From: a virus | DNA: 11,964 nt | Direction: 5' to 3' (one strand) | UHGV virus genome: UHGV-1565976 | In this document: in pieces, positions 573 to 3,034 of the stretch | How positions within the stretch are numbered: the first letter of the stretch is position 1 | Layout: the number at the start of each line of letters is the position of its first letter | Made by a program: the position numbers and the translations under genes | Notes under the pieces: model-generated | Database searches by the model: none | Told to the model about the DNA's origin: nothing | What the model saw: only the letters and a program-made list of their open reading frames with translations

Positions 573-768
573 GCTTCACCTCGATAGGCTTGATGGTATA
601 GATCAGCAGTCGGCGGCGAGTATTTTCTGCAAAGTGGCGGCGTCCGGTTTCTTTGTGGTAAAACTCGTTTTTTCCGACGACCCACATCCGCTTTGTCTGG
701 TGCAGTTTTTTTACCTGCGGACCGTCTCGGGTGATAACAATTCCTGTATGAGTTTTTATCACGCTCAT
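565..768 (-). CDS. hypothetical small phage protein (67 aa)
   Basis: ATG at 768 overlaps the stop of the upstream gene in an ATGA arrangement (translational coupling); basic small protein, no recognised domain. Confidence 0.4.
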   Translation of the reverse strand: MSVIKTHTGIVITRDGPQVKKLHQTKRMWVVGKNEFYHKETGRRHFAENTRRRLLIYTIKPIEVKHV

Positions 769-1127
769 TTTTTATTCTTCGGTGCTTTCGGCATTACTGC
801 CCAGTGAGTGATATTGACGTTTTCAAGGTCCCCGACCTGAAATGTCCACAGCCATTCTCCGGTTTCTTTTTGTCCCCAGGTGTACCAGAGAGAACGCCAG
901 CCAATTAGCCAGCCTTCTCCGTTAGCATCAAATAACAGAACACTTTCATTTGCTGGCGGCAGTTCAGCTGACACTGGTATTATTTTGTTTTCCAGTGCCG
1001 CACATTTAGCTTCAAGCGCATCGAATTTACGTACCAGGTACTCAGCATTTGTTTCATTCACTTTCAGATCTCGTGGTACACATTTCCCGCGAAGAAACCC
1101 TTCCATTTCGAAAACATTCATGCGCAT
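765..1127 (-). CDS. yfdS: DUF551-like phage protein (YfdS-like, 120 aa)
   Basis: ATG at 1127 with GGAG 8 nt upstream; C-terminal ...NITHWAVMPKAP resembles the DUF551 THWMPLP signature; 120 aa and gene order match CPS-53 YfdS as remembered. Confidence 0.55.
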   Translation of the reverse strand: MRMNVFEMEGFLRGKCVPRDLKVNETNAEYLVRKFDALEAKCAALENKIIPVSAELPPANESVLLFDANGEGWLIGWRSLWYTWGQKETGEWLWTFQVGDLENVNITHWAVMPKAPKNKK

Positions 1128-1654
1128 TTGCGTAACTCCGATAACTCGTTAAAACGTTCCATAAACATCCCGTAGGCATGGCCTGGTGACAGTGGAATAA
1201 CTTTGAACATCTCTGTCGCCGGGATACCTTCCAGTACAGGCCAGAAAGAGCCATCATCAAGCCCGAGATCGCGACGTTCGGTTGCCAGCATAATGAGATC
1301 GGCATATTTCACTGGCGTGCTCATAACAGGAGGTAACCCGTATTTCTCACGGATTACGGCGTCTATTTTTTCTTCCATCCGTTTATAGTCAGGAAGAAGG
1401 CGTTTCAGTGGAGCTGGGATGTCCTGGCAATACGCTTCTGTTGCATCATGCATTAACGCTTCAAAAGCAAATTCCTGCGGCACCAGCTGGCTGCAAAGCA
1501 CCGCATGTTGGGCGACGCTGTAGAAGTGAGAAAGATGACCGGCAAAGCGACAGATATTTGAAAGGGAAACCGCGATATCGTTAATAACGATGTCATCTTT
1601 ATTTATCTTGTCATAATAAAAATGCTTCCCGGAAAAAGTTTTAATAAATGACAT
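1118..1654 (-). CDS. yfdR: HD-domain phosphohydrolase (YfdR-like 5'-deoxynucleotidase, 178 aa)
   Basis: H...HD metal-binding signature (VAQHAV..., ALMHDATEAY); preferred start is the ATG at 1654 (GGAG 7 nt upstream) rather than the ORF-track start at 1681, giving 178 aa. Confidence 0.7.
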   Translation of the reverse strand: MSFIKTFSGKHFYYDKINKDDIVINDIAVSLSNICRFAGHLSHFYSVAQHAVLCSQLVPQEFAFEALMHDATEAYCQDIPAPLKRLLPDYKRMEEKIDAVIREKYGLPPVMSTPVKYADLIMLATERRDLGLDDGSFWPVLEGIPATEMFKVIPLSPGHAYGMFMERFNELSELRKCA

Positions 1655-1747
1655 TTTGTTCTCCACGTATATGCGCTGCACCGCGCTGAATTTGGGTAAA
1701 AGGAAGCCCTCACCATCCGGTGATTATTGAGTTAATTACGTTTCCAT

Positions 1748-1769
1748 AAATGCCCCCGCAGGGGCATTT
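1748..1769. other. perfect 9-bp stem / 4-nt loop hairpin in the yfdQ-yfdR intergenic region
   Basis: AAATGCCCC-cgca-GGGGCATTT read directly; no clean U-tract on either strand, so not called a terminator. Confidence 0.35.
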
Positions 1770-1781
1770 GCAGTAATGAAA

Positions 1782-2606
1782 TCAGGCGGTGAAAGTACCA
1801 ATAAAGGTTTCTACTTTGCTGTCTTTGAATTTCTCAACAAGCAGATCACGAAATTCGTTAGCCATATCTTCCTGCACCGCTTCCAGCTGAATAATGCGCA
1901 GAACCAGTACAGGACGATCGCCAGTGATAATGCTGAGGCGTAATTTAAACGGACGTTCTTTCAGACCTTCAAACGGAACGCATTTAAATTCAAATGCCAC
2001 TGGCATAATGTCTTTGGTCTTCGCTTCGACAGATTCCATCAGGGAGCGTTTGCCGCTGAAGTCATTATCTTCAAAATCAGCGGTCTGGTTTGCTTCAATC
2101 GTGATTTTACGGATTGCCGCAGCCGCTTTTGTTGCCTGAATGGCGTCACCATTAGCATCAAAGCCCACAAGGTAGTCGGCCCAGTCTTCAATCCATTCTG
2201 CCAGTGATTTCTGGGAGTTACGCTCGCCGTTAACAGACAACAGGGCAGAGAACGGTGCTGTCTTTTTCAGTTTGAGAGTGGCGGTGTTATCTGCGTGACC
2301 TGGTTCATCAATAGTACCCAGGTTAAGCACACTGACGGCACGCATATTATCAGCATCGATAAAGCAGCGGGTGCCTTCATCTGCAAGATCTTTAGAATAA
2401 CGGGTAAAGTCATCGATGCTGGCAGTGGAAAGCGCACCACGGAAACGGAAGCGATTTAAATTAAATTTTTCCAGATCATGAATGCGGAAATTCTCAGGCA
2501 ATGCCACAGCATCGGCACCAATCTTACTGATAATTTCATTAACACCCTGAGCAGAAATAAGGGCATGGATTTGATTAATTGCGGTTGCGTCTAAGTTCTG
2601 AGACAT
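1782..2606 (-). CDS. yfdQ: YfdQ-like phage protein (DUF2303-type, 274 aa)
   Basis: ATG at 2606 with GTGAGGA about 7 nt upstream; 274 aa and position upstream of the HD-domain gene match CPS-53 YfdQ as remembered; similarity not verified. Confidence 0.6.
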
Positions 2607-2671
2607 AATAAGTCCTCACTATATTAAGATATTCAGTGATGAGATAAATAATCAGTTAATTAAGAACGATA

Positions 2672-3034
2672 TTAATGACCTGCTGCGCGGAGTTTTCCGT
2701 CAGGTTCACCGGCAAGAGTCAGTAATTGTCCCTGGTCTTCCTGTAGAATAGTCAGGCGACCACCGCGATTGACATACATCGGCGTTTCGGTGGTGTCTTC
2801 TTCAGAAATTTTCCCGCGGTTAGTCGGGCGAACATATGAGAGTTTGTGTTTTATTTTCACACGGTTCTCATCAAACGGTTCGATTTCCAGGTTGAGCGAG
2901 ACCTTACCTTTGGTTTTCGTGTTCATCACACCGGAAGCGACTTCACTGAGAACTGCGCCGATTTTGGTTTCAAATACGCCGCCGTCCAGCTCCCCGATAA
3001 ATGCCTGCACATCAGTACTGCGTTCGCTAGCCAT
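2672..3034 (-). CDS. yfdP: YfdP-like phage protein (120 aa), first gene of the leftward operon
   Basis: Preferred start is the ATG at 3034 with GAGGAG 9 nt upstream (ORF-track start at 3052 lacks an RBS); 120 aa. Confidence 0.5.
   Translation of the reverse strand: MASERSTDVQAFIGELDGGVFETKIGAVLSEVASGVMNTKTKGKVSLNLEIEPFDENRVKIKHKLSYVRPTNRGKISEEDTTETPMYVNRGGRLTILQEDQGQLLTLAGEPDGKLRAAGH

Follow-up and report, generated by a model that had tools for sequence, protein, structure and literature searches.

Does a compact run of four genes in a virus genome encode a device by which a phage restrains replication of its host's chromosome? The window analyzed here, i.e. the whole stretch of 11,964 nucleotides from the virus genome UHGV-1565976, had been suggested to carry a module like yfdPQRS of the Escherichia coli K-12 cryptic prophage CPS-53 at positions 765–3034. 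That original prediction, made from size and motif, held that an intact copy under pL control would let the phage shut down replication of its host. The genes concerned and the two open reading frames (ORFs) that follow them are located as follows.

2672–3034, minus strand: yfdP, 120 amino acids, the first gene of the cassette; PF27127 by precomputed Pfam annotation
1782–2606, minus strand: yfdQ, 274 amino acids; DUF2303/YfdQ family; needed for the published initiation-inhibition phenotype
1118–1654, minus strand: yfdR, 178 amino acids from ATG; HD-domain phosphohydrolase, annotated 5'-deoxynucleotidase; the DnaA binder of the published study
765–1127, minus strand: yfdS, 120 amino acids; DUF551-like; shares 10 nt with the end of yfdR
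565–768 (67 amino acids) and 333–572 (79 amino acids): two ORFs after yfdS

All four ORFs were found on the minus strand in the proposed order and with the proposed sizes of 120, 274, 178 and 120 amino acids, and the claimed HD-domain signature is present and intact in YfdR, with H50, H69-D70 and D119 forming the metal-binding motif H...HD...D. The 120-amino acid start of yfdP is the ATG used by RefSeq, an alternative of 126 amino acids beginning at 3052, and a longer YfdR of 187 amino acids is possible from GTG 1681. Pairwise alignment by BLASTP against the K-12 MG1655 proteins from NC_000913 placed the assignment on firmer ground, as identity is high, not low: 99.2% for YfdP (single substitution, L59V), 100% for YfdQ, 98.3% for YfdR (N151K, A156S and D170E only) and 98.3% for YfdS over residues 1–117 (117/120 amino acids). 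The last four residues of YfdS differ from K-12 owing to a mosaic junction at ~777; from there to 3053 the DNA aligns with K-12 without gaps over 2,277 nt at 98.3% identity. The ORF coordinates together with this alignment indicate that P, Q, R and S are co-linear on one strand, R and S overlapping as they do in K-12. At the level of families, YfdQ matches PF10065 (DUF2303/YfdQ) with 311.9 bits against a cut-off of 26.6 (residues 7–272), and YfdS matches phrog_583 and reaches 21.0 bits against a cut-off of 22 with DUF551 (PF04448; residues 50–117, E=6e-4); NCBIfam and PADLOC scans gave no match for YfdP, YfdQ or YfdS. Judged from these sequence comparisons, the K-12 match is far beyond chance, and the cassette is the standard yfdP-yfdQ-yfdR-yfdS set of SfV/mEp460-type lambdoid phages and prophages, which is already known.

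With a match in 3,025 of 5,426 complete E. coli genomes, this is one of the commonest E. coli prophage cassettes, and it also occurs in phages SfV, mEp460 and cdtI, in PhiR phages and in many Stx phages. The copies in SfV (orf29-32), mEp460 (gp32-35), cdtI, the PhiR prophage-derived phages and several Stx2 phages are 95–100% identical and likewise lie between the repressor and the ea22/xis/int region, whereas the immunity regions and the genes past yfdS are mosaic and differ among these phages; the leader and repressor region of mEp460 agrees with that of the window at 98.8%. Gene order and sizes in CPS-53 (KpLE1; b2359–b2362) equal those of the window. Past yfdS, CPS-53 continues with yfdT-ypdJ-torI, whereas the window has the ORFs of 67 and 79 amino acids, both of which proved unrelated to YfdT on comparison with the K-12 protein, so that yfdT is absent. 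On the other side, homology to K-12 ends at 3053, 19 nt before the yfdP ATG; CPS-53 has lost the native upstream region, including the cI/OL region and the structured leader, both of which the window retains.

The functional part of the original prediction, namely that YfdR is a reported DnaA binder and that overexpressed yfdQRST inhibits initiation, matches the work of Noguchi and Katayama (2016; PMC4776307). According to that report, YfdR binds DnaA domain I, multicopy yfdQ and yfdR with either yfdS or yfdT inhibit initiation at oriC, and initiation at oriC drops, in vivo as well as in vitro, when YfdQ, YfdR and YfdS or YfdT are in excess. The authors named SfV homologues and already proposed an ancestral phage role (PMC4776307); the idea of a block to host replication is not new, having been published in 2016. 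Considering that the minimal inhibiting set, Q, R and S, is intact in the window at 98–100% identity to K-12, the missing yfdT is no disqualification. Binding to DnaA domain I (Phe46) and lowered oriC initiation are known only for the K-12 proteins and under overproduction, and the window's YfdR differs from its K-12 counterpart at three C-terminal positions (151, 156 and 170), far from the HD catalytic residues. Two parts of the proposal fare less well. The gene yfdP, counted as a member of the replication-control cassette, is present, but it is dispensable for initiation inhibition (PMC4776307). As for shutting down host replication, the minimal set is there, but the functional evidence was obtained entirely with multicopy plasmids or overproducing extracts, the inhibition is moderate, gene deletion gave no phenotype, and the authors grant a possible artefact (PMC4776307). 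The proposed logic, in which the initiator is bound and oriC firing lowered, is like that of Lambda P (DnaA domain III), Bacillus subtilis SirA and E. coli Dps (domain I), and SirA has in common with YfdR the dependence on the Phe46/Phe49 patch of DnaA domain I. None of the three has sequence or fold kinship to YfdR, an HD hydrolase, and unlike them YfdR needs YfdQ and YfdS or YfdT in vivo, with a moderate effect seen on overproduction only.

On the proposed pL control of the cassette, the following elements were located.

3663–3677, unstranded: TTGCGCATTATGCAA, OL-type operator palindrome, putative site of pL
3687–3701, unstranded: TTGCGAGATATGCAA, OL-type operator palindrome, putative site of pL
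3757–4449, minus strand: cI-type repressor, 230 amino acids; HTH and S24 peptidase-like C-terminal domain

These two palindromes and TTGCGCGTTAAGCAA (4470–4484), in the cI/cro intergenic region, form one family of 15-nt palindrome repeats, which thereby has members both on the left of the immunity region and on its right, as in Lambda-type early-left operons; the OL pair lies just downstream of a cI-distal hairpin (3719–3736). The repressor, which matches phrog_4 and phrog_6201 (CI-like) and whose copies in relatives are annotated as XRE family regulator or repressor, would control the OL-type operators. No sigma-70 promoter scoring ≥9/12 was found at OL, where the best pL candidate, picked by eye, is TTGCAT (3677–3672), a 17-nt spacer and TATCTT (3654–3649), and 3035–3760 holds no N-like ORF. 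Control from pL appears plausible because the operators are shared with OR, and they stand upstream of the cassette in the right orientation; it would not be simple, however, as a consensus sigma-70 promoter was not detected and any transcript from the operators has to pass a terminator-like hairpin and a structured leader on its way to yfdP. The elements of this leader are listed below.

3055–3219, minus strand: yfdP 5' leader, with hairpins A, B and C on the mRNA strand
3177–3219, minus strand: hairpin A, terminator-like, then a U-run
3078–3176, minus strand: hairpin B, long
3075–3086, minus strand: SD-like motif UUGUGGAGAAAC
3055–3070, minus strand: hairpin C, short, GC
3042–3047, minus strand: yfdP ribosome-binding site, GAGGAG

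The leader RNA folds with z = −5.6, and Rfam has no match in it. Column-wise covariation on a MAFFT alignment under-counted the pairing, because the register drifts between lineages, and was replaced by an anchored-helix test that needs no alignment and was controlled with random anchors and with the opposite strand. Across 64 motif-bearing loci, the helix ending at the SD-like motif has a median length of 18.5 bp, compared with 8 bp at random anchors (95th percentile 12), and under identical rules it is longer in the mRNA sense than in the antisense (18.5 versus 13 bp; 48 loci versus 8). More than 12 lineage-specific stem sequences occur, with pairing kept in each. Hairpin B is conserved as RNA, is specific to one strand and has arms that covary. 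Other identities for this segment were considered and found no support. Neither ARAGORN nor Rfam detects a tRNA in the window, the segment being tRNA-adjacent sequence instead; an inverted-repeat search in HK022 did not reveal putL or putR, and the leader does not resemble the HK022 immunity/put region in sequence, although it might still be a structural analogue of put RNA; a 24-amino acid ORF (3027–3101) exists in the window, whereas inspection of the leaders of other lineages showed no start codon at a comparable distance past the SD-like motif.

Our preferred reading, held tentatively and at somewhat less than an even chance, is that of a native early cassette, which would be read from OL after repressor loss and dampen DnaA-dependent host initiation, P-Q having a further function. 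In the window the cassette still occupies its original site, heading the leftward early operon beside its own repressor, operators and leader. Inactivation of the repressor would start transcription from the OL operators leftward, and the transcript would cross a leader of ~440 nt, containing the terminator-like hairpin and the conserved RNA hairpin, before reaching yfdP-Q-R-S. A burst of YfdQ, YfdR and YfdS would then dampen, not abolish, host initiation, and YfdP-YfdQ, an evolutionarily fixed pair, would have another function besides. This reading is favored by gene identity and order, by the minimal set Q, R and S, by the intact HD catalytic residues, by published inhibition of initiation and DnaA binding for near-identical proteins, by the operators shared with OR, and by functional phages (mEp460, SfV, cdtI, PhiR and Stx) holding the same cassette at the same position. 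Since phages of this class carry an O-only replication module without a helicase loader (PMC12315714; also by annotation), interference at the DnaA–DnaB interface is biologically conceivable. Against dampening of host initiation stand the restriction of the functional evidence to overproduction, the failure to detect a consensus pL, the terminator-like hairpin before the cassette, the presence of HD proteins in phages of distant hosts, and the gene linkage around YfdQ. Among 80 species-level YfdQ loci from species-representative genomes, YfdP occurs together with YfdQ in 79 and YfdR accompanies it in 59, versus only 6 with YfdS and 4 with YfdT; a further 80 viral-contig YfdQ loci, all 99–100% identical and uninformative for neighbourhoods, were set aside.

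The conserved unit is YfdP-YfdQ, often with YfdR and rarely with YfdS or YfdT, an observation that is new here and mismatches the published genetic requirement for Q, R and S or T, with P dispensable. Re-identifying a common prophage cassette and restating a hypothesis from 2016 carries small weight in itself; the comparative counts sharpen any test of the host-replication hypothesis. Given that evolution keeps YfdP-YfdQ(-YfdR) and not the Q-R-S/T set defined by overexpression, a real function not yet seen is suggested. It may well be, although we would not expect it, that YfdP-YfdQ, often joined by YfdR, is the functional core and that overproduction inhibits host initiation as a side effect. 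Besides the adjacency in 79/80 loci, this is consistent with the P-Q pairs of Vibrio and Xanthomonas phages, which have no HD neighbour and lie among genes for Erf, recombinase, DnaQ-type exonuclease and SSB, with the order gam-recT-exo-ssb-yfdP-yfdQ in ArgO145, and with a DnaQ-like exonuclease within 6 kb in 26/80 loci. A YfdQ homologue of known structure comprises 36 chains in a single PDB entry (9o7m), the phage of the window is Chi-rich (8 co-oriented sites versus ~0.2 expected), and mild sensitivity to MMS and H2O2 has been reported for K-12 yfdQ mutants (PMC4776307). Other results argue against such a core. On fold comparison, the YfdP and YfdQ models matched no solved fold, whether of SSAP, SSB, nuclease or another DNA-binding type, and no cassette protein is homologous in sequence or fold to Red-beta/RecT, Erf, Rad52-like, Exo, Gam or SSB proteins of the Lambdoid Rec module. 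In pull-downs, YfdQRST gave no stable binding to oriC DNA (Noguchi and Katayama), and the authors of PMC12315714 dispute a recombination role because ArgO145 has the cluster as well as a full Rec module.

The same counts bear on a question raised in 2025, how lambdoid phages replicate without a recombination module and a helicase loader. The LLS/ST64B 'no Rec module' class (Genome Res 2025, PMC12315714) has cI, yfdP, yfdQ and an HD phosphatase in the window's order and, like the window, an O-only replication module and abundant co-oriented Chi, with no N homologue found in either; YfdQ of LLS is only ~56% identical to that of the window, and LLS has no DUF551/YfdS gene, with two small ORFs and a DnaQ-like exonuclease there. 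A more far-reaching possibility, which we consider doubtful, is that YfdP-YfdQ would be a two-protein machine, found from Enterobacterales to Vibrio, Marinobacter and Xanthomonas phages and with YfdQ as a large homo-oligomer, that fills the replication/recombination gap in Chi-rich lambdoid phages lacking the Rec module and helicase loader. By gripping the DnaB-binding patch of DnaA (Phe46), YfdR would in that case divert host helicase or initiation factors towards the origin of the phage instead of only switching the host off, and the yfdP-leader hairpin would be a dedicated expression switch.

YfdR might instead act mainly as an enzyme, a dNMP (5'-deoxynucleotide) phosphohydrolase reshaping the nucleotide pool in early infection, with DnaA binding incidental and its neighbours unrelated accessory genes; we regard this as improbable. 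Apart from the intact H...HD...D motif, it has in its favor a match to phrog_318, 'deoxyribonucleoside 5' monophosphate phosphatase' (E=4e-110), and the name 5'-deoxynucleotidase, the source of which is RefSeq annotation and cited biochemistry. By tblastn, 333 phage records contain YfdR-type HD enzymes, their hosts being as diverse as Bacillus, Caulobacter, Rhizobium and others, jumbo and virulent phages across many phyla included; phage T5, whose Dmp might be a homologue, is not among the matches listed; such diversity of hosts indicates a general enzymatic role. YfdR is also missing from 21 of the 80 YfdQ loci, suggesting that it acts as a separable unit, but in Enterobacterales it mostly directly adjoins P-Q. 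The nearest solved structure by sequence is the HD protein Atu1052 (2gz4; E=2e-13). YfdR falls below the cut-off of the YfbR-like family PF12917 (24.2 versus 25.9 bits) and far below that of the NCBIfam YfbR equivalog NF003009 (19.9 versus 122), so by sequence it is an HD relative and no YfbR equivalog. Noguchi and Katayama (PMC4776307), citing Zimmerman et al. 2008, describe its nucleotide affinities as well under those of YfbR and its function as elusive.

That the cassette would be an anti-defence or inter-phage competition module is very unlikely, since PADLOC defence models match 0 of the 6 proteins scanned (the four of the cassette and the two small downstream ORFs) and no anti-defence homology was found for the cassette, even though it adjoins the immunity region at the early-left position, where many lambdoid genes of such roles lie, and although a preprint (10.1101/413146) reports, for an effect ascribed mainly to YfdM, that deletion of K-12 yfdQ abolishes lysis by a T1-like phage and that a yfdQ plasmid restores it.

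Protein-against-protein alignment with the CPS-53 region of E. coli K-12 MG1655 identified four consecutive ORFs of the window, all on the minus strand, as yfdP, yfdQ, yfdR and yfdS:

2672-3034, minus strand, yfdP, 120 aa, 99.2% identical to the K-12 protein (L59V)
1782-2606, minus strand, yfdQ, 274 aa, 100% identical to the K-12 protein
1118-1654, minus strand, yfdR, 178 aa, 98.3% identical to the K-12 protein (N151K, A156S, D170E)
765-1127, minus strand, yfdS, 120 aa, 98.3% identical to the K-12 protein over 117 aa

At the DNA level, window positions 777-3053 match K-12 without gaps (98.3% over 2,277 nt), and the last four residues of YfdS differ from K-12 owing to a mosaic junction at ~777. 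The HD residues of YfdR (H50, H69-D70 and D119) are intact. Together, these alignments and residues confirm the yfdPQRS cassette, which the original prediction had assigned correctly from gene sizes and an HD-domain signature. yfdT is absent from the window, as the ORFs following yfdS (565-768 and 333-572) are unrelated to it. The cassette is already known and very common, and therefore of low interest in itself: it is matched in 3,025 of 5,426 complete E. coli genomes, over at least 80% of its length in 2,446 of those and nearly always at 95-99% identity, it recurs in phages SfV, mEp460 and cdtI, the PhiR phages and many Stx phages, and RefSeq already names its members yfdP, YfdQ family protein and yfdR 5'-deoxynucleotidase. 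For the window as a whole, no 100% match was found among the complete E. coli genomes searched, the top match being strain 2015C-3121 at 98.1%.

The suggestion that the cassette controls host replication follows published work, in which yfdQRST was isolated as a multicopy suppressor of hda-185, the minimal set comprised yfdQ and yfdR together with one of yfdS and yfdT, yfdP was dispensable, and DnaA was bound by YfdR only (Noguchi & Katayama 2016, PMC4776307). The window contains Q, R and S, so this minimal set is complete there despite the missing yfdT; yfdP, which the original prediction counted into the module, is irrelevant to the phenotype. The same study reported that deletion of these genes leaves initiation unaffected, its authors noting that the overexpression effect might be an artefact and suggesting, by analogy with lambda P and citing SfV homologues, that an ancestral propagative phage had made use of the genes (PMC4776307). 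The host-replication-control reading thus accurately repeats a hypothesis already in the literature, and we regard it as partly supported: it agrees with what was published and none of the required genes is missing, but its basis is overexpression alone and it fits the conservation pattern poorly.

This pattern was obtained by scoring neighbours at 80 YfdQ loci from species-representative genomes. YfdP lies directly upstream of YfdQ at 79 loci, the sole exception being truncated by a contig end, and YfdR follows downstream at 59, directly adjacent in most, while YfdS is a neighbour at 6 and YfdT at 4. The nine most divergent loci (fetched loci L158-L166, from Marinobacter, Hahella, Photobacterium, Kistimonas and Pontibacterium) keep P-Q alone. 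The pair is also found in Vibrio phage 41E34.2 (hhalign probability 99.4%) and in Xanthomonas phage Sopo (99.2%), beside Erf, recombinase, DnaQ-type exonuclease and SSB genes and with no HD or DUF551 gene next to it. The counts, together with the divergent and phage loci, therefore indicate that evolution ties P to Q, with R often added and S and T optional, which is the reverse of what inhibition of initiation requires genetically. The pattern does not disprove inhibition of initiation but makes it improbable that this activity is all the genes do, or what they are selected for. Proteins of the YfdR HD type are present in 333 phage records, whose hosts range as far as Bacillus, Caulobacter and Rhizobium. 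The gene order in Stx-type phage ArgO145 is gam-recT-exo-ssb-yfdP-yfdQ; within 6 kb of YfdQ, an SSAP, exonuclease or Gam-type gene is present at only 2 of the 80 loci and a DnaQ-like exonuclease at 26. YfdP and YfdQ are not recognisable as annealing proteins, SSBs or nucleases. PDB entry 9o7m, titled 'YfdQ Protein', contains 36 chains and matches the window YfdQ at E=2e-44; its sequence is 98.8% identical to a protein of Xanthomonas phage MET23-P3 (Xanthomonas/Xylella phage group), and the Sopo locus (L087, 4004-4828) is listed alongside it. We found no publication describing this entry, which was not among the matches listed in a fold search of PDB entries up to April 2026. In K-12, deletion of yfdQ is reported to abolish the lysis zone of the T1-like phage SW1 and plasmid-borne yfdQ to restore it (preprint, 10.1101/413146), a possible inter-phage phenotype unrelated to DnaA.

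The original prediction placed the cassette under pL control, and the following features bear on its transcription:

3757-4449, cI-type repressor gene, followed by a hairpin at 3719-3736
3663-3677 and 3687-3701, two 15-nt palindromes of one repeat family
4470-4484, third palindrome of this family, between cI and cro
3177-3219, minus strand, predicted terminator-like hairpin of 14 bp followed by a U-run, about 440 nt beyond OL
3078-3176, minus strand, predicted hairpin with a ~25-bp stem, followed by the SD-like motif GUGUGGAGAAAC, a short GC hairpin and the yfdP RBS

The palindromes have the layout expected of OL and OR, which supports leftward repressor-controlled transcription, but the search for promoters gave no consensus match at OL, and no ORF resembling N was seen. 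Control from pL is therefore plausible, but given the terminator-like hairpin and the structured leader between OL and yfdP, expression is probably gated. The leader (3055-3219, minus strand) folds with z = -5.6. Across 64 motif-bearing species-level loci, the helix ending at the motif has a median length of 18.5 bp, compared with 8 bp in a random-anchor control (95th percentile 12, maximum 17). Under identical rules the antisense strand gives 13 bp, and the mRNA-sense helix exceeds its counterpart at 48 loci and falls short of it at 8, which indicates an RNA structure. In at least 12 enterobacterial lineages (leaders in L090-L165) the arms are wholly different in sequence yet still paired, and the short GC hairpin also covaries. 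K-12 CPS-53 lacks both hairpins, the motif and the GC hairpin; Rfam has no family at the yfdP leader, and the leader has no similarity to the HK022 immunity region. By analogy with the lambda N leader, the leader hairpin could be where RNase III cuts or serve to control translation; it might also contribute to antitermination. What interest remains attaches to the unexplained YfdP-YfdQ pair and to this conserved leader RNA, both side results. Three copies of TTTGTGGAGAAA(C/G) are present in the window, at 3075-3086 (minus strand) in the yfdP leader and at 9540-9552 and 11369-11381 (plus strand), directly preceding the start codons of the KilA-N gene (ATG 9554) and the Q antiterminator gene (ATG 11384), and look like a shared Shine-Dalgarno context.

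The window fits the Chi-rich, Rec-less phage LLS class (PMC12315714): its cI gene precedes yfdP, yfdQ and an HD phosphatase gene, and it has no N homologue, an apparently O-only replication module and many co-oriented Chi sites. The module, at 6675-8023, appears O-only, and replication of this phage type is described as 'not yet understood' (PMC12315714). The same authors describe genes of the yfdP/Q/R type as frequent in the early-left region and without a known function, and argue against a role in recombination (PMC12315714). Ten Chi sites (GCTGGTGG) lie within 12 kb, with ~0.2 per strand expected from composition, all confined to the rightward early operon and none in the yfd/cI part:

4998, 5386, 7236, 8046, 9298, 10602, 10873 and 11890, plus strand, eight Chi sites
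5662 and 8402, minus strand, two Chi sites

Rfam places an isrK Hfq-binding sRNA at 5708-5784 (plus strand, 58.7 bits, gathering score 50) and a C4 antisense RNA at 5809-5896 (plus strand, 78.8 bits, gathering score 45), both within a 382-aa ORF (5348-6496) that relatives annotate in full as 'Rha family phage regulatory protein', suggesting that a c4-ant immunity layer of the P1/P7 type is present and that the annotated CDS is too long. Between the Dam methylase gene and rusA, a 108-aa ORF (8673-8999, plus strand, 327 nt) corresponds by size and position to the 'LexA family transcriptional regulator' of relatives; judged by its length, it could accommodate the N-terminal DNA-binding part of LexA only, and a LexA-like protein of this length, encoded in the early-right operon, might be relevant to how the SOS response controls induction.

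Some 240 nt of the pL leader (3359-3602, minus strand) share 73-83% identity with unannotated sequence that directly adjoins tRNA genes in other phages (L168, L171-L174), namely tRNA-Met/Ile(CAU) in the tciC-ban interval of P1 and SJ46 and tRNA-Arg(UCU) in phiV10. No tRNA is present in the window itself. The conserved core contains some compensatory pairs, e.g. in the hairpin CCUGGGAAGAGACCAGG. Segment 3420-3640, over which the records listed carry no annotated feature, is present in 1,562 of 5,426 E. coli genomes, and 550 of its occurrences are on plasmids. In E. coli strain 2012C-4502, an exact 32-nt match to positions 3555-3586 lies beneath a feature labelled 'CRISPR', which suggests that a spacer was acquired against this leader element.
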